In this document: positions 10,187 to 22,741 of the stretch, in pieces
Layout of the letters: each line of letters begins with the position of its first letter
Position numbering within the stretch: position 1 is the first letter of the stretch
Assembly (NCBI GenBank): GCA_016235545.1
Contig: JACRKB010000128.1
Coordinates: 580 to 64,579 of the forward strand
Source: Verrucomicrobiota bacterium
Lineage (GTDB): Bacteria > Verrucomicrobiota > Verrucomicrobiia > Limisphaerales > SXTU01
Length of the DNA stretch: 64,000 nucleotides
Reading direction: 5' to 3'
Program-made: the position numbers and the translations under genes
The notes under the pieces: generated by a model
Told to the model about the DNA's origin: nothing
The model's database searches: none
What the model saw: the letters and a program-made list of their open reading frames with translations, nothing else

Positions 10187-11470
10187 TCACCCTCCCAGCT
10201 CAAATCCCGGTATCGTCCCGCTGCCGGAGCTGGAGCCAAACGCGTTCACATCCGCGCCGAGGCGACGAAGGAACTGCACGTAAAGATTCGAGAGCGGCGG
10301 GTTCTTCTTCGGGTCGAACGCAAGGTGCTGGCCGTGCCGGAAGCCGCCGCCGGCCACAACGATGGGCATGTTTTTGTTGTCGTGGCTGCTGGCGTTGCCC
10401 AGGTTGCTGCCGAAGAGGACGATGGTGCGGTCGAGCAGAGTGCCACCCTGTTCGAGCGTGCCCTTGAGCTTGGCGAGCAGCTCTCCGAAGAGCTTCATCT
10501 GCTGGAGCTCCACGAGCTTTAACTCCGCAAGCTTGAGCGGATCCTGCCCGTGGTGCGAGAGATTGTGCCAGTCCTGCGTGACGCCAGCGATGACGGGCAC
10601 GGCGTTGAGGCCGTTCAGCGCGAAGGTGATGAAACGCGTCGAGTCCGTCTGGAGCGCGAGGTGCATCAGGTCAATCATCAGCCGCACGCGCGCGGGCACC
10701 TCGACGGAGCTGGCGATGTCCACCGGCGGCTTGGCGTCCACCTTCGGCTTGGGGCGCCGCGCCCAGTCCTGCGCCTTGACCATGCGCACCTCGACCTCGC
10801 GGACGGAGGTGAAATACTCGTCGAGCTTCTCGCGGTCGGGCTTGCCGAGGCCGCGTTGGAAATCCTTCGCCTCATCGAGCACCGTGTCCATGATGCTCTG
10901 GCCCTGCTTGAGCCGCTGCACCTGGGCGTTCACCTCGTTGACCGTGCCGTTCACGAACATATTGCGAAAGACGCGCGATGGCCGCTCATCCGCTGGAATT
11001 GGCACGCCGCTGCGCGTGAAGGACAAGCCCCGGCTCGACGACGACGCGAGCGTGAGCGAGCCGAACCGCGTGTCCGGCACGAGCTTCTCGATGGCGAACT
11101 GGTCGAGCGAGATGGTGTTCTTGAAATTGTCCGCGCGCGGGTGCGGGGCTGACGTGAGGTAGCACAGCTCGGCGGGATGCCCGCCATCCACCTCGGGATG
11201 CGAGAGGCCGGAGAAAACGGTGAAGTCGCGGCGAAATTCCGCGAGCGGTTCCAGATAAGGTGTCAGCGCGTAGTCCTTTCCCGCCGCCGAGGGAAACAAG
11301 TTCGGCGTGTGCAGCCCCAGCGTGGTGTTGATGCAAATCAGGCGGCGCGGCGGGGCGGCAGCCTGCGCGCGCAACGGCGTCATGGCCTCGAGCAACGGCA
11401 GCGCGAGCGTGACGCCGGCGCCGCGCAGGAAAGTGCGGCGGGAGAATGTGGCTTGGCGGTTGGTGTTCAT
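10187..11470 (-). CDS. DUF1501 domain protein (sulfatase-fold, Tat-signal)
   Basis: The track ORF is over-extended. The internal ATG at 11470 gives MNTNRQATFSRRTFLRGAGVTLALPLLEAM (twin-arginine signal), followed by conserved DUF1501-type blocks (GGHP..., SEFGR-like region, NHDN...). 428 aa. Confidence 0.8.
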   Translation of the reverse strand: MNTNRQATFSRRTFLRGAGVTLALPLLEAMTPLRAQAAAPPRRLICINTTLGLHTPNLFPSAAGKDYALTPYLEPLAEFRRDFTVFSGLSHPEVDGGHPAELCYLTSAPHPRADNFKNTISLDQFAIEKLVPDTRFGSLTLASSSSRGLSFTRSGVPIPADERPSRVFRNMFVNGTVNEVNAQVQRLKQGQSIMDTVLDEAKDFQRGLGKPDREKLDEYFTSVREVEVRMVKAQDWARRPKPKVDAKPPVDIASSVEVPARVRLMIDLMHLALQTDSTRFITFALNGLNAVPVIAGVTQDWHNLSHHGQDPLKLAELKLVELQQMKLFGELLAKLKGTLEQGGTLLDRTIVLFGSNLGNASSHDNKNMPIVVAGGGFRHGQHLAFDPKKNPPLSNLYVQFLRRLGADVNAFGSSSGSGTIPGFELGG

Positions 11471-11618
11471 GACAGGCTCAGGCGACCAGCGGACAATCAG
11501 ACGCGGAGACGGGGAGCGGTTAGTCATGCGCATTCGCGTGCGGCGGCTGCGGGCCGAAGGAACTCGCAAGCTACTTGCCCATGCCCGCCCGCGGGAGGAA
11601 GTCATGTCCAAACATGGC

Positions 11619-11753
11619 GGGCGCATCTTGACACTGCCCCCGGAGCGCCGGTCTCCGACCCGGCGGGTGGTGCAAAGCACCCGGAAACGCGCCGGATCGG
11701 AGATCGGCGCACCGCAATGCCAGTCAAGTCGGGGGCAGTGTCAAGATGCGCCC
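11619..11753. mobile_element. MITE-like 135-bp element with perfect 23-bp terminal inverted repeats and 9-bp target-site duplication
   Basis: The left end GGGCGCATCTTGACACTGCCCCC (11619-11641) is the exact reverse complement of the right end GGGGGCAGTGTCAAGATGCGCCC (11731-11753). Identical AAACATGGC copies flank it at 11610-11618 and 11754-11762. The interior is itself partly palindromic. Confidence 0.75.
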
Positions 11754-12750
11754 AAACATGGCTGGACGCGAGATTTCAACTTGGTCCGACGAGCGGACTG
11801 CGGGTAGGCTCCCTGCGCTCGTGGCTTCGACATTGGACAATCTCCCGCCGCACCGACATCGCGTCTATGGTCTGACTGTCGCGACATGGATTCCCTTTCC
11901 CGAATTGGAACCCGCGCCCGCCGACGCACCGGTGGACGCCGTCTTCCGCCTCGGCGAGGTGCCGACGGAACTGGCATCACCTCAGTTCTCGGGGGCGTGC
12001 TTCCAAACCGCGCCGGACAGCCTCTTGATGTGGGTGACAGAAGGTGCGCACTACCTGGTCAGGGCTGGGCGGGAAATCATCGTCCAACCCAAGCCTGGTG
12101 CTCCTCTGGATGCGGTGCGTGTTCTGTTGCTCTGCTGGCCTATGGGTGCGCTTTTGCTGCAACGAAGACTGCTGCCCCTCCACGCCAGTGTAATAGCCGC
12201 GCCGCGTGGGGCGGTTGCGTTCTTGGGAGCGTCCCGGGCCGGCAAGTCCACGCTCGCGGCTCATTTTCGAAAGGCCGGCTTTCGGGTGCTCTCCGACGAC
12301 ATCGCCGTGGTTCACTTTGCTCCCGATGGCCGGCCTTGGATTGCACCCGGGTATCCCCAATTCAAGTTATGGCCTGAGGTGGCAGAAAAACTCGGGGAGG
12401 ACGCCAGACGAATGCCGAATCTCTGGCCGAGCCAGCCCAAACGGTCGCTTTCGTTTCGGAGCGAGTTTCACTCCACAAGCCTCCCAATCGCCCGGCTCTA
12501 CGTCCTGGAACCCGTGGCTACAGATGAAGTTCAGTTGAGCCGGCTAGCTCCTTTCGAGAGCATCCGTTGCCTGGCCGAGCACACGTATCGCGCTCAATTT
12601 GTCCCGGGGTTGGGCTTGCAGAGCAGCCATTTCCAGTCCATCGCACGCTTAGCGGACGCAGTGCCCCTCACACGCGTCAGGCGTCCTGCACAAGGATTCC
12701 AACCGGAGAAGCTCACTTCAGTGCTGGCAGCAGACTTTGGGATGCCCTGA
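11746..12750 (+). CDS. HPr-kinase-like serine/threonine kinase of lasso-peptide clusters (precursor C-terminal kinase type)
   Basis: P-loop LHASVIAAPRGAVAFLGASRAGKSTLAAHF followed by VLSDDIAVV resembles the HprK C-terminal domain. It lies immediately upstream of B1/B2 genes. The ATG at 11746 is inside the MITE end, so the native start is probably ATG 11758 (MAGRE...). Confidence 0.75.
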   Translation: MRPNMAGREISTWSDERTAGRLPALVASTLDNLPPHRHRVYGLTVATWIPFPELEPAPADAPVDAVFRLGEVPTELASPQFSGACFQTAPDSLLMWVTEGAHYLVRAGREIIVQPKPGAPLDAVRVLLLCWPMGALLLQRRLLPLHASVIAAPRGAVAFLGASRAGKSTLAAHFRKAGFRVLSDDIAVVHFAPDGRPWIAPGYPQFKLWPEVAEKLGEDARRMPNLWPSQPKRSLSFRSEFHSTSLPIARLYVLEPVATDEVQLSRLAPFESIRCLAEHTYRAQFVPGLGLQSSHFQSIARLADAVPLTRVRRPAQGFQPEKLTSVLAADFGMP

Positions 12751-12861: not shown

Positions 12862-13167
12862 ATGCCACAGACGTTTTTGAACTTGGACTCGCGGGTCGCC
12901 CGGTCGACGGACTTGATCAGCAGTTCGGTGAGCGGCCAGACAGCCTTGATGAGCATCGCCAACGGGGCTTACTACGGGCTGGACCCAGTGGGCAGCCGCA
13001 TTTGGGAACTGATTGCAGAGCGTCGTCGGGTCGGGGCGATCTGCGAACAACTACTTGCAGAATTCGCCGTTGACCGGGCCAAGTGCGAAACTCAGGTGCT
13101 TGCATTCCTCCACCGACTGGCCAATGACGGGCTTCTGAGTGTGAGCCATGAGCAGCCGCGTGCTTAA
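12862..13167 (+). CDS. Lasso peptide biosynthesis PqqD-family chaperone (B1 / RiPP recognition element)
   Basis: Taking ATG 12862 gives 101 aa. The sequence LMSIANGAYYGLDPVGSRIWELIAERRRVGAICEQLLAEFAVDRAKCETQVLAFLHRLANDGLL is a typical PqqD/RRE pattern. Its 3' end overlaps the B2 start by 20 nt. Confidence 0.8.
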   Translation: MPQTFLNLDSRVARSTDLISSSVSGQTALMSIANGAYYGLDPVGSRIWELIAERRRVGAICEQLLAEFAVDRAKCETQVLAFLHRLANDGLLSVSHEQPRA

Positions 13168-13591
13168 GCTTGGGCGATGCAACTGGAGCGACCAAGCGCT
13201 GCTGATGGAGGCGGTGGCTTGGCTCTGCGGTGCCCGGCTCCTGCTCCTGCTCCTGCCATTTCGCTGGCTGGCCCCAAGGCTGGGCCAGGCGATGAGCGAA
13301 AGTCCGGCCCAGATAACCGAGCCTGAGCGCAAACTCGCCCTGCGGGTTTCATGGGCCGTCCAAGCAGTCGCCAGGAATCTCCCCCTCGGTTTTGTGTGTC
13401 TGCCCCAGGCGATCGCGGCCAAGTGGATGCTACAGCGGCGGCAACTCGCCACCACGCTCTACCTCGGAGTGGGCCGACCGGAGGATGCGGCACTCACCGC
13501 TCACGCTTGGTTGCGTGCCGGGGACAACATTCTCACCGGACGGGAAGCGAGCCTCCAGCACACAACCATCGCGTGGTTCGGCGACAAGTGA
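13148..13591 (+). CDS. Lasso peptide biosynthesis B2 protein (transglutaminase-like leader peptidase)
   Basis: 147 aa. The sequence FVCLPQAIAAKWMLQRRQLATTLYLGVGR...LTAHAWLRAGDNILTG matches the McjB-C / Transglut_core3 pattern, with a catalytic Cys and the His of AHAW. Confidence 0.85.
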   Translation: MSSRVLKLGRCNWSDQALLMEAVAWLCGARLLLLLLPFRWLAPRLGQAMSESPAQITEPERKLALRVSWAVQAVARNLPLGFVCLPQAIAAKWMLQRRQLATTLYLGVGRPEDAALTAHAWLRAGDNILTGREASLQHTTIAWFGDK

Positions 13592-13739: not shown

Positions 13740-13880
13740 ATGAAAAACGACACCGAAACGCAGGACTCACAGCTCGAAAAGAAACAGTGGAACGAGCCGA
13801 CCGTCACCGAACTTTCCATCAACTTTGACACCCTTATCGGCTTAAACGCAGCCGTTGACGGTCTTAACACCAACACCTGA
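13740..13880 (+). CDS. Candidate lasso peptide precursor (46 aa), not in the ORF track
   Basis: ATG 13740 to TGA 13878-13880 translates to MKNDTETQDSQLEKKQWNEPTVTELSINFDTLIGLNAAVDGLNTNT. The leader has a WxxP motif and a Thr at -2 if cleaved after TL. The putative core IGLNAAVDGLNTNT has Asp8. The ORF lies in a locally AT-rich stretch, directly after B2 and directly before a strong terminator. Confidence 0.6.
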   Translation: MKNDTETQDSQLEKKQWNEPTVTELSINFDTLIGLNAAVDGLNTNT

Positions 13881-13983: not shown

Positions 13984-15936
13984 TCATCTCGACCAAGGCA
14001 AGGGCCGTTCAATTTCGGGGCTGTCAAAGCGAAGGAGAAACATCCCCACCATCGTCCCGCGGGTGATCAGAGTCACGCACTCCATCGTGTTTTGCGCATT
14101 GATTCCGTATTGGAGTGAGTCAAGCACCCGCCGCAGGTGAGGCACGTCAACTGCCTCGTTCGCCAACGCAGAGCGTTCCATCCGCTCAAAAACCTCCCGT
14201 AACTCGTGAGCGGAAGCTCGAATCCGATAGCCGATATCCATCGCCTGCTTGCCGCGCTTGGGATTGAGGCGAACGGCGTCCGGGAGCAATCCATCCATCG
14301 CGCGCCTGAGCAACCATCGGGTTTGACCCCGGTGATAGAATTGGCTGTTGGGCACCCGCAGACAAAACTCAATCAACTCGGGGTCCATTGTCGGATCGCG
14401 CACGTCCAGGCCATAGGCGGCACCCAGTTCGGCCCAGCCACAGCCCACCGGGTTCTCCGCCAAGTTCATGACCGCCAGGCGTTCTTGATGCGGGTCCGAG
14501 AAGGAGAAGCTGGGGTTGTGTCCCGTGTCCTGCATCCGCTCGCGCAGATTCAATCCACGGGCAAACTCAGTCCGAATCGCCGAGTAGTTCAACCACGGTT
14601 CCTGCCAGTTCCCTTTTCGTTGCCGCCAACTCTCTCTGAGCGGTAGCAGGGCCGGCCGCAGCAGATGCCGACGGAAGACCATCGCGGCGGTGGGCTGCAG
14701 CTTTCTGGCGCGACCCCACAGGCCCCGCCAGCGCCCGTGCAGCAGGTCGGGCCACAAGCTCTCTGGCCAGCCAGTCCAGGAAACGCCGCCGTTGCCGAAC
14801 TGGCCCGTCAACAAAACACCGATCCCCCGTGCCCTCGCTTGTTCGAGCATGTCCACGATCCAAAAATGATTCACCGCCCCGTGCCCGGGTTCATCGCAAA
14901 TCTCCAAAACTCGTGCGAAGCCCGCCAGCGGAGAAATGCGCTCACCTCGGACATACTGCACATCCAGATTTCCGAAGTGAGCGCGGTTGGCCTCCACCAA
15001 CGGCTGCTCGTCGAAGAACAAGCCGGGCAGCTCAAACTCGATCTTGTGTAGCGGCACTGAGCAAAACGCCGCCAGTCGGCGTCCCTCGGCACGAAGCTCC
15101 CGTGCCGCCAGGGCGCAAACCGAACCGGAATCAAGCCCTCCGCTCAACGTGCCGCCCACCGCCCGCCCGCCGCGCATCCGCACCCGCACGGCGCGCGTGA
15201 ACTGTTCCCGGAACGCCTCGACGTATTCATCGTCGGACTTGAGCTCCAATGGAGCCAAAGTCTCGGGAAACCAATACCGCCGCTTCCTCATCTGGCCGCC
15301 CGCGCAAATGGTGAGGGTGTGTCCCGGTTCCAGTCGCACGATGCCTTCATACCCGCACAAATTGCCCCGGCCACTCCACGCTGTCAGCACTTGCGCAACG
15401 CGCAAGAGGTTTGGACGGCGCGGCATTTCTGGCACGGCCAGCAGGGCCTTGACACAGGAGGCGAACGCAAACCACCGCGGATTCGCGTGATAATAGAGGG
15501 AACTCACTCCGCACGGGCATTGGGCCAGGAACAAGCGGCGCTCGCGGGACTCCCAGATGGCGAACGCGAAATCACCGCGGAGGTGGAGCACGCAATCCTC
15601 ACCCCACTTCTGGAAGGCTCGCAGAATCAGCTCACCATCCCGCACGGCGGTGTGATTGTTCCCAGCAAGTGCGAGCTGGGTGGCCAGTTCCTCCCGGTTG
15701 TCCAAGCGAGCGGCCGCCGTGATGATCAGCCCGCCGTCTGAATCACGCAGGGGCAGCTGCTCCTGCAAACTTTCATGCGTGGCGTGCCGCAATAAATGCC
15801 CAAGCCCCACGTTGCCATCGTGCCAGAGGCCGGCACCGTCCGGCCCCCAGTAGGCCATCGCCCCGCGCATCCCTTCGAGGGCGCTGCGATCCACGGGCCT
15901 TCCATCCAGGGAGAAATAGCCGTAAATGCCACTCAT
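13984..15936 (-). CDS. Lasso peptide cyclase (asparagine synthetase-like, C protein)
   Basis: The track ORF is trimmed to ATG 15936 (MSGIYGYFSLDG...), giving 650 aa. It has the AsnB fold with PP-loop TLSGGLDSGSVCALA, but the N-terminal nucleophile Cys is replaced (MSGI instead of MCGI), as expected for lasso cyclases. It is convergent with B1/B2/A. Confidence 0.8.
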   Translation of the reverse strand: MSGIYGYFSLDGRPVDRSALEGMRGAMAYWGPDGAGLWHDGNVGLGHLLRHATHESLQEQLPLRDSDGGLIITAAARLDNREELATQLALAGNNHTAVRDGELILRAFQKWGEDCVLHLRGDFAFAIWESRERRLFLAQCPCGVSSLYYHANPRWFAFASCVKALLAVPEMPRRPNLLRVAQVLTAWSGRGNLCGYEGIVRLEPGHTLTICAGGQMRKRRYWFPETLAPLELKSDDEYVEAFREQFTRAVRVRMRGGRAVGGTLSGGLDSGSVCALAARELRAEGRRLAAFCSVPLHKIEFELPGLFFDEQPLVEANRAHFGNLDVQYVRGERISPLAGFARVLEICDEPGHGAVNHFWIVDMLEQARARGIGVLLTGQFGNGGVSWTGWPESLWPDLLHGRWRGLWGRARKLQPTAAMVFRRHLLRPALLPLRESWRQRKGNWQEPWLNYSAIRTEFARGLNLRERMQDTGHNPSFSFSDPHQERLAVMNLAENPVGCGWAELGAAYGLDVRDPTMDPELIEFCLRVPNSQFYHRGQTRWLLRRAMDGLLPDAVRLNPKRGKQAMDIGYRIRASAHELREVFERMERSALANEAVDVPHLRRVLDSLQYGINAQNTMECVTLITRGTMVGMFLLRFDSPEIERPLPWSR

Positions 15937-16053
15937 ACGATTCGTTTCAACGAAAGGGTCGGCGGCGGTCCTTGGACTCGATACCTGCCTGATCAAACCA
16001 CCGCGCGCGCTTTGTCATAGAGTGCAGCATAGCTAAGGACTACGGCGACAAGT

Positions 16054-20890: not shown

Positions 20891-22741
20891 TCAATCCAGC
20901 TTGAAACTCTCAATGTATCTTTTCCGTTGACCTTCGTCCTGCTGCGGCTGCTCGGTGCGGCGGAGCACGCAGTTCTCCAGCACCAGCAAGTCCATATCCG
21001 ACGCCCTGAAGCAGCGGTAAGCGTCCTGCGGCGTGCAGACGATCGGCTCGCCCCGGATGTTGAAGCTCGTGTTGATGATGACGCCGCAGCGGGTCTGGCG
21101 TTTGAACTCCTTCATCAGCCGCCAGTAACGCCCGTGCCGCTCCTCGTCCACGGTTTGAATGCGCGCACTCATGTCCACATGGGTGATGGCCGGCAGCGTC
21201 GAGCGTAGGACGTTCACGCGCTTGCGCAGATCGGGGTCTTTCTGCAACTGCCGCTGCTCGGGCGTGAGCGGCAGCCTATGTTTCTTCTTCACGTCGGCCA
21301 CCATCAGCATGTAGGGCGACTCGCGGTCGTGGTCGAAATACTTGGCCACATCCTCGATGAGCACGCACGGAGCGAAGGGGCGGAAGCTCTCGCGGAATTT
21401 GATGCGCACGTTCATCTGCGACTGCATCGCCGGGCTTCGCGGGTCGCCGATGATGCTGCGCGCGCCGAGTGCGCGTGGGCCGAATTCCATACGTCCGCTG
21501 AACCAGCCGACCACTTTCTCCGAGGCCATTTCCTTCGCGACAGCTTCCAGCAACTCCGGCTCCTGCTCGTAAAACGTGTAGCGAACTTGCTGGCCGTCGA
21601 GGAAAGCGCGGATTTCCTCGTTCGAGAATTTCGGACCGAGCAGCGAGCCTTTGAGCGAGTCTTTCCGCGAAGCCGTGTGCGTGCGCGGCTGGTCGAGCAA
21701 CTGGTGTTGCACAAAGAGCGCCGCGCCCAGCGCACCGCCCGCATCGCCCGACGCGGGCGTGACAAACACGTCCTCGAAGATTCCAGCGCGGAGCAACCTG
21801 CCATTTGCGACGCAATTGAGCGCGACGCCGCCTGCGAGGCAGAGATTCTTGCTGCCGGTAAGCTCCTTCGCATGCCGGGCCATGCGCAGGACAATCTCCT
21901 CCGTGACCTTTTGAATCGAGGCTGCGATGTCCATCTCGCGCTGCGTGATGGCGGACTCGACGCTGCGTGCGGGGCCGCCGAAGAGCGACGCGAACTTGGC
22001 GTTCGTCATTGTCAGCCCCTGGCAGAAGTTGAAGTAGCTCATGTCCATCGCGAGCGAGCCGTCGGGCTTCACGTCCACGAGATGCTTGAGAATGGTGTCC
22101 ACGTATCGCGGCTCACCGTAGGGCGCGAGGCCCATGAGCTTGTATTCTCCCGAGTTGACCTTGAAGCCGCAGAAGTAGGTCACCGCGCTGTAAAGCAGGC
22201 CGAGCGAGTGTGGGAAGTGAAGCGTTTTGAGGAGTTTGATTTTGTTCCCCTGCCCATGCCCGATGGTCGCGGTGTCCCACTCGCCGACTCCGTCGAGCGT
22301 GAGGATGGCCGCGTCTTCGTAGGCCGACGGAAAAAAGGTGCTGGCCGCATGCGACTCGTGGTGGCCTGTGAACGCGATGCGTTTTCTGTAGCGGCCTCCA
22401 AGAGCGTTCCGAATCTCGCGGGGCAGGTGCAGCTTGGTCTTCAGCCACACCGGCATCGCCATCATGAAGGACTGAAGTCCGGCGGGCGCGAATGCGAGGT
22501 AGGTTTCCAGCAGGCGGTCGAACTTGAGCAGCGGCTTGTCGTAGAAGACGACATGGTCGAGCTGCTCTGGCGTGAGGCCGGCCTCGCGCAGGCAGTAATC
22601 CACGGCGTGCTTCGGAAACTCGGAGTCATGCTTGATGCGCGTGAAGCGTTCCTCCTGCGCGGCGGCGACGATGTCCCCATCCACAACGAGCGCGGCGGCG
22701 CTGTCGTGGTAGTAGGCGGAGATGCCGAGAATGCGGGCCAT
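20891..22741 (-). CDS. Carbamoyltransferase (NodU/CmcH family)
   Basis: 616 aa. The sequence MARILGISAYYHDSAAALVVDGDIVAAAQEERFTRIKHD has the typical N-terminal ASKHA-like fold signature, and a C-terminal YrdC-like carbamoyltransferase domain is present. Confidence 0.9.
   Translation of the reverse strand: MARILGISAYYHDSAAALVVDGDIVAAAQEERFTRIKHDSEFPKHAVDYCLREAGLTPEQLDHVVFYDKPLLKFDRLLETYLAFAPAGLQSFMMAMPVWLKTKLHLPREIRNALGGRYRKRIAFTGHHESHAASTFFPSAYEDAAILTLDGVGEWDTATIGHGQGNKIKLLKTLHFPHSLGLLYSAVTYFCGFKVNSGEYKLMGLAPYGEPRYVDTILKHLVDVKPDGSLAMDMSYFNFCQGLTMTNAKFASLFGGPARSVESAITQREMDIAASIQKVTEEIVLRMARHAKELTGSKNLCLAGGVALNCVANGRLLRAGIFEDVFVTPASGDAGGALGAALFVQHQLLDQPRTHTASRKDSLKGSLLGPKFSNEEIRAFLDGQQVRYTFYEQEPELLEAVAKEMASEKVVGWFSGRMEFGPRALGARSIIGDPRSPAMQSQMNVRIKFRESFRPFAPCVLIEDVAKYFDHDRESPYMLMVADVKKKHRLPLTPEQRQLQKDPDLRKRVNVLRSTLPAITHVDMSARIQTVDEERHGRYWRLMKEFKRQTRCGVIINTSFNIRGEPIVCTPQDAYRCFRASDMDLLVLENCVLRRTEQPQQDEGQRKRYIESFKLD

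Follow-up and report, generated by a model that had tools for sequence, protein, structure and literature searches.

The window analysed here is a 64,000-nucleotide stretch of DNA from a Verrucomicrobiota bacterium (C61:580-64579 of the source assembly G000, which consists of 311 contigs), and the element under study is a 135 bp inverted-repeat unit at 11619-11753, upstream of the HprK-like kinase gene of a lasso-peptide cluster. Taken together, the data make it likely that this unit is a recently inserted, non-autonomous DDE-type MITE (miniature inverted-repeat transposable element) and that it inserted 27 bp upstream of the -35 box of the kinase gene, as the preferred target of its family, and not at the start codon. 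All the genomes used, G000 included, were metagenome-assembled genomes (MAGs).

Anatomy, copies and empty sites of the element

The features of the element and its borders are as follows.

11610-11618, no strand assigned: left copy of the target-site duplication (TSD), AAACATGGC, identical to 11754-11762 and abutting the left terminal inverted repeat (TIR)
11619-11753, + strand: MITE, subtype A of the Limisphaerales TIR family, assigned from its TIRs, TSD and copies
11619-11642, + strand: left TIR, GGGCGCATCTTGACACTGCCCCCG, complementary to 11730-11753 at 24/24 positions, with an inward TTGACA at 11628-11633
11641-11714, no strand assigned: nested inner hairpin, with arms 11641-11668 and 11687-11714 that are 86% complementary
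11730-11753, + strand: right TIR, the promoter-proximal end of the element, which is the adjacent end in 17/18 promoter-side subtype-A copies
11754-11762, no strand assigned: right TSD copy, AAACATGGC; its ATG at 11758 is coincidental and not a conserved start

The two arms were located by repeat search and are reverse-complementary throughout, one base longer on each side than the perfect 23 bp TIRs proposed in the first-pass annotation of this DNA. The 9 bp TSD that it had described is present on both sides, abutting both TIRs, and the smaller motifs that it had listed were also found in the sequence, namely a 5-codon open reading frame (ORF), ATG GCG GGC GCA TCT TGA, at 11614-11631, the TTGACA hexamer and two further ATGs, that of the right TSD copy at 11758 and one in frame at 11746. 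The element is non-coding, and the short ORFs within it are spurious. For the whole 135 bp unit the folding energy is -111.8 kcal/mol, far below that of shuffled sequences (z = -10.75). No outward-facing promoter was seen in it and, since the TTGACA of each TIR faces inward, no outward hybrid promoter is formed. A scan of 11400-11950 against Rfam returned only sub-threshold noise, leaving the MITE without an Rfam match, and nothing was matched when the element was used as a BLAST query against a plasmid database.

The inner hairpin (CGGAGCGCCGGTCTCCGACCCGGCG ... CGCCGGGTCGGAGACCGGCGCTCCG) represents a separate palindromic repeat family of ~72 nt, which is found free of TIRs in many Limisphaerales genomes. 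Many matches in relatives were confined to element positions 23-97, i.e. to this hairpin. Subtype A looks like a pair of TIRs wrapped round a REPIN-like hairpin, which the MITE appears to have captured or to have used as its core. Classification of the whole element with the REP/REPIN sequences mobilised by RAYT was considered and rejected, as the element has TIRs and a 9 bp TSD and only the inner hairpin is similar.

Two further full copies were found in G000, at 98% and 97% identity, and one more at 81%. The two near-identical copies have TSDs of 9 bp each, TATGTGCTC on C221 and GGCGCTTGA on C250, and across the 66 copies examined the 9 bp TSD was perfect in most and differed in sequence from copy to copy. 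The family, with TIRs of the GGGCGCATCTTGACAC type, was found in 22 of 41 related genomes, including G021 from another family of the order, with copy numbers ranging from few in some relatives to at least 15 in G003 and ~170 TIR pairs in G015. Interior subtypes of 135, about 160 and 162 bp share one TIR.

The number of TIR pairs in G015, a 7.4 Mb congener, compared with 3-8 in G000, marks a lineage-specific MITE burst. G000 also contains a 45 bp mini-element running from TIR to TIR (C274:11491-11535), elements of ~190-240 bp with the same termini and GGAGAGGGCTGGGGAGAGGAGG-type repeats inside (C209:9633-9870 and C199:~22410-22603), and a 161 bp subtype with a TSD of 8/9 (C71:15075-15235).

Empty sites were found in two genomes. 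The orthologous locus of G019, which has a kinase of 85% identity and the same DUF1552 neighbour, is without the 144 bp, and the window minus the element and one TSD copy aligns colinearly with it. The second case is G005, whose kinase is 95% identical to that of G015 and which is empty at the site occupied in G015. The insertion is recent, as had been proposed, because the TIRs and TSD are perfect and the sister copies are 97-98% identical. Judged from these sequence features, 11619-11753 is a genuine, recently mobile MITE. The original assignment to this class is borne out by the TIRs, the 9 bp TSD and the dispersed copies with differing TSDs, and both the copy count (two near-identical copies in G000) and the empty sites agree with it. 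The first-pass annotation had linked a fixed regulatory palindrome to a lack of other copies and to conservation of the sequence in place; dispersed copies and empty orthologues were found instead.

The kinase start and its predicted conserved promoter

The features downstream of the element are listed below.

11770-11829, + strand: conserved non-coding leader/promoter block, GAGATTTCAACTTGGTCC ... TAGGCT ... CTCGTGGCTTCG, defined by alignment of 16 leaders
11781-11786, + strand: predicted -35 box, TTGGTC (TTGTTC in relatives), its first T lying 28 nt outside the MITE tip
11805-11810, + strand: predicted -10 box, TAGGCT, separated from the -35 by an 18 nt spacer and located 10 nt before the GTG
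11821-12750, + strand: HprK-like kinase gene of the lasso cluster, with the conserved GTG start

The 16 distinct homologous leaders that were aligned came from genus genomes (nine), one further MAG and metagenome contigs (six). The GTG equivalent to 11821 was invariant (16/16 leaders) and was the only conserved start. An in-frame stop was located ≤45 nt upstream of this GTG in 10 of the 16 homologues, nine of which have no intervening start codon. The distance from the TAGnnT box to the GTG varies by 1-2 nt among the leaders through indels, so that the interval between them is non-coding. Conservation does not extend to the TSD's own ATG (11758), G013 having CCC GGA at this place, and the other ATG, at 11746, is supplied by the TIR.

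These data bear on the earlier proposal that the element had landed on the start codon of the operon. According to that explanation the insertion hit and duplicated the native kinase ATG and cut the operon from its 5' region, and translation would proceed from 11758 or 11746. The frame is indeed open from both ATGs into the kinase, and translated homology to G013 and G016 reaches residue 2 of the product that would start at 11758. However, this homology is conservation of the promoter block as DNA, as indicated by the stops in 10/16 homologues and the 1-2 nt indels before the GTG; G013 lacks the ATG, the sole upstream ATG in G016 is that of the TIR itself, and the GTG does not vary. The comparison does not support the proposal, and translation from either ATG is regarded as highly improbable.

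A TAnnnT hexamer is found 8-10 nt before the conserved GTG in 14 of the 16 homologues, and the -35 region in relatives is CTTGTTCC, where the window has TTGGTC. From this conservation and from the family-wide target rule described below, the conserved blocks are predicted to constitute a sigma-70-type promoter, and the kinase mRNA is probably leaderless or nearly so. A single occurrence of the leader motif was found in G000. In a scan of 401 genomes of the order it was confined to these genus-level lasso loci, apart from a divergent case in G343. With the promoter predicted in this way, the kinase start codon and the core promoter are intact, and the MITE tip is 27 nt upstream of the predicted -35 of the kinase-B1-B2-precursor operon. 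The suggestion that the operon had been separated from its native 5' region by 144 bp holds for the distal upstream DNA, which was displaced, but not for the promoter, which stays with the ORF.

The lasso-kinase operons of the genus (L044-L051, L065 and L118-L127) share the arrangement GATTTCAACTTGTTCC, about 18 nt, TAGnTT, 8-10 nt and GTG. The sequence GATTTCAA, just upstream of the -35, equals the hexamers in conservation; it could serve as a UP site or be bound by a regulator.

Three of the 16 leaders are occupied by an element of this family, all at the identical nucleotide position. In G000, G015 (L049) and G016 (L046, where the contig breaks inside the element) the tip of the TIR precedes TTTC(A/G)(A/T)CTTG by exactly 20 nt, equivalent to 27 nt before the -35. 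The window copy is of subtype A, while the G015 and G016 copies are of subtype B, and that of G016 is inverted relative to that of G015. Because interiors and orientations differ, and because G005 is empty where G015 is occupied and G019 is empty where the window is occupied, these represent three independent insertions. Their recurrence at one spot in different species without shared ancestry would be a consequence of the family target rule, and such recurrent elements can be misread as conserved regulatory sites.

If the palindrome were instead a locus-specific operator or attenuator of the lasso operon, and not mobile DNA, the very strong predicted fold, the promoter-proximal place and the occurrence of a TIR element at the same spot in three species would all be explained. 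Yet near-identical copies are located at unrelated loci with TSDs of their own, the element is absent from the closest orthologue, G019, and from 13 of the 16 leaders, and no common interior and orientation is shared by the three occupied sites. This explanation is given next to no credence.

Spacing and orientation relative to -35-like hexamers

The flanks of 50 copies from six genomes were read outward from the tips, giving 100 half-sites. TTG was present at outward offset +28 to +30 in 23 of the 100, compared with a mean of 2.26% at other offsets (binomial p = 6e-17), and the target hexamers were -35-like (TTGACA, TTGACC, TTGCCA, TTGGCA and similar). After a 16-18 nt spacer a TAnnnT followed in 12 of these 23, compared with 0.5% of genome-wide TTGs (p = 6e-22), and several of the others had CAnnnT. 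A long outward ORF started ≤ ~100 nt from the tip in roughly 20/23 cases (a few of the automated ORF calls are doubtful); these ORFs often had signal-peptide-like N-termini and often began 7-10 nt after the -10 box. The flank of the C250 copy of G000 (14326-14389) serves as an example, with TTGACC, 16 nt, TATCCT, 8 nt and then the ATG of a 320-codon ORF.

The same spacing was recovered in an independent set of 16 copies from G015, of which seven were positive and in which +28 was the sole offset with at least three counts. Over the combined sets TTG at +28 was found in 30/132 half-sites, or 30/66 copies (~45%; p = 2e-21), which corresponds to a fixed distance of 27 nt between tip and TTG. In subtype A orientation was also constrained, as TTG was present in 18/37 copies and in 17 of these 18 flanked the end that corresponds to 11753 (p = 1.4e-4). 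Promoter adjacency seemed to go with contig strand in G003, but the association lost significance when all genomes were counted. Among the promoters marked by a MITE (flanks L128-L233) the -10 is often (T/C)AnnnT, and the start codon often follows 7-10 nt later; this suggests that short or absent 5' leaders are common in this lineage.

Since the single-nucleotide spacing and the orientation hold across unrelated genes, subtypes and two families, a physical ruler acting at integration appears to be indicated. The alternative that position is fixed by selection, such that only copies at -63 and in the correct orientation bring an advantage and persist (the element might bind a regulator, insulate as a hairpin or absorb supercoils), was also considered. 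The orientation bias and promoter adjacency would equally be expected if the right end carried a cis-regulatory site, and half of the copies are not at promoters. On the other hand, +28 is the sole enriched offset, neighbouring or helically phased offsets not being enriched; the rule is seen at unrelated genes, in several subtypes of the interior and, through G021, in a second bacterial family; and it is already followed by very young copies, whose TSD and TIR are perfect. Selection of this kind is thought unlikely to be the source of the spacing, and a ruler acting at integration is preferred to it.

If the transposase picked targets that contain a copy of its TIR core, TTGACA, in the manner of IS30/IS911 inverted-repeat targeting, the promoter would be incidental. 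The genus g1 TIR contains CTTGACAC, the target hexamers are TTGACA-like, and in the G000 subtype another TTGAC lies 27 nt inward of the right tip, as a mirror image of the target TTG at +28. Nevertheless, the TIRs of G021 (GGGCGCATCCGGGCAC) are without TTGACA, and TTG is still found at +28 in 6 of 14 G021 copies. Moreover, the subterminal TTGAC is confined to the G000 subtype and was seen at only 2 of the 23 ends that lie next to a promoter, and the -10 boxes and gene starts beyond the TTG indicate real promoters. Recognition of the TIR core is conceivable but doubtful as the basis of target choice. A strict mirror symmetry, with the subterminal TTGAC as the counterpart of the target TTG, was rejected on the 2/23 count.

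A number of observations count against a MITE family directed to promoters. TTGGTC and TAGGCT fit the E. coli consensus weakly, and a generic promoter scanner missed the conserved promoter and called one unrelated weak site. About half of the copies are without TTG at +28, and a strict TAnnnT was found in only one of the seven positives of the G015 replication, the others being CAnnnT-like. The end of subtype B that faces the promoter is not the same in G015 as in G016, and orientation specificity is accordingly stated for subtype A. Purifying selection on copies recovered from MAGs could inflate the promoter-proximal share, but not the single-nucleotide spacing. Finally, an autonomous transposase with these TIRs was not found, either by TIR-pair scans or by two Pfam-guided searches.

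Parentage, mechanism and genomic setting

In the scans of seven genomes (G000, G001, G003, G011, G013, G015 and G016) no TIR pair 0.7-4 kb apart enclosed a transposase; only MITE-sized pairs were obtained, and two wider pairs in G015 each proved to be two separate MITEs. Similarly, none of 29 DDE_Tnp_1 (PF01609) and seven IS256-type (PF00872) loci in eight genomes was bounded by the TIRs. MAGs often lose insertion sequence (IS) copies. A solo exact right TIR is located 270 nt downstream of an IS5-like transposase gene on G015:C22 (L096 / L193). This transposase (DUF772 + DDE_Tnp_1, G015:C22:34266-35676) was rejected as the parent, as 18 other copies of it are without the TIR and the adjacency appears coincidental. 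Of parentage in the IS903 group or by an IS4-type element, the 9 bp TSD is the only feature that fits.

The proposed event is the insertion of a non-autonomous DDE-type transposon, in which the 9 bp TSD would cover about -62 to -54 of the predicted transcription start. The tip would be set 27 nt from a TTGnnn, with the -10 box 16-18 nt further on and then the gene start. Such a placement points to a protein ruler, which may be a transposase or selector module reading -35-like DNA, or promoter-bound RNA polymerase. Under either ruler, real promoters would be enriched by selection against intragenic insertions. More specifically, but only tentatively, RNA polymerase holoenzyme on the -35/-10 boxes or a sigma-region-4-like selector might place the transpososome for strand transfer at about -62 to -54 and in one orientation.

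The consequences for the operon would be mild, as no gene is disrupted, upstream DNA is displaced and a palindrome is added. DNA beyond about -63, including any that is shared with the promoter of the divergent DUF1552 gene, would have been moved 144 bp away. The start codon and core promoter would remain intact, as would a possible UP region made up of the TSD copy and a further 11 nt. A strong palindrome would now be located where negative supercoils gather upstream of an active promoter. Taken singly, this insertion is an ordinary MITE event, with a probably modest regulatory effect on a silent-looking lasso cluster.

A MITE with a 9 bp TSD is of a known type; what is new is fixed-distance, oriented insertion upstream of -35 boxes. 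MITEs with such a TSD are known from the IS903 group of IS5 and from the IS4 family, for instance MITEAba12 of Acinetobacter. The present family shares with them a small non-coding unit, perfect TIRs, dispersed copies and interior subtypes on one TIR, and differs in that no cognate IS was found for its TIRs. The known elements show at most a local sequence or AT preference, and we know of no 9 bp TSD MITE that inserts at a fixed distance and orientation from a -35 box. The Correia/NEMIS elements of Neisseria are likewise TIR-bounded hairpin MITEs, enriched near promoters, and can alter the expression of neighbours. They have a TA target, their own promoter and IHF sites and a different TSD, and are not known to keep a ruler-like interval from a resident -35.

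Tn7 (TnsD/attTn7) and the CRISPR-associated transposons also enter harmless sites in a single orientation, and keep a fixed spacing of tens of bp to a DNA determinant which they recognise. Tn7 has a 5 bp TSD, the TnsABCD machinery and a single chromosomal site, in contrast to the 9 bp TSD found here, a determinant which is a generic promoter element at thousands of sites, and the absence of identified associated genes. In E. coli, IS5 repeatedly enters a precise position upstream of glpFK, of flhDC and of bgl, which is similar to the recurrence at the lasso promoter. IS5 has a 4 bp YTAR target and locus hot spots set by DNA structure and bound regulators, and is not known to follow a genome-wide -35 spacing rule. 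The set distance upstream of transcription units, and the safe-haven logic that goes with it, have parallels in the yeast elements Ty3, Ty1 and Tf1 and in the Dictyostelium element TRE5-A. These are eukaryotic retroelements whose integration is tethered to the transcription machinery (TFIIIB, Pol III or Sap1), and to our knowledge Ty3-type tethered integration has no bacterial DDE counterpart. A literature search returned no description of this MITE family, of fixed-distance promoter targeting by bacterial MITEs or of such a counterpart.

If true, the target rule would represent a safe-haven strategy for which no bacterial precedent was found. It would also provide, free and with no need of experiments, a promoter map in an uncultured phylum, one which suggests that Limisphaerales have very short leaders and sigma-70-like -35/-10 boxes, and would point to a target-selection protein that could be of use for promoter-proximal DNA insertion. 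Were the promoter itself the landing beacon, the family would be a bacterial DDE counterpart of Ty3-type tethering and a natural tool for insertion beside promoters.

The genes surrounding the kinase are listed below.

10187-11470, - strand: divergent DUF1552/TAT-signal gene, starting at 11470, the same neighbour as in G019
12862-13167, + strand: lasso B1, PqqD-family RRE (NF033536, 4.6e-22; PF05402)
13148-13591, + strand: lasso B2, transglutaminase-like leader peptidase (NF033537, 3.6e-24; PF13471)
13740-13880, + strand: candidate precursor peptide of 46 codons, identified as an ORF only
13984-15996, - strand: lasso cyclase, asparagine-synthetase-like, convergent with the operon (NF033535, 4e-121)

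The gene set expected of a lasso cluster was found, comprising B1 (PqqD), B2, an Asn-synthetase-like cyclase and a short precursor ORF; a nucleotidyltransferase gene alongside the cyclase is also convergent. The kinase gave a local P-loop match only (TIGR04352, E = 7e-8), scoring 31.9 bits where the cut-off is 200, and Pfam yielded no match. No family model matched the 46-codon candidate precursor, MKNDTETQDSQLEKKQWNEPTVTELSINFDTLIGLNAAVDGLNTNT. Several public MAG records that contain this verrucomicrobial lasso locus (L060, L062 and L066) are titled Klebsiella, and these labels are probably wrong.

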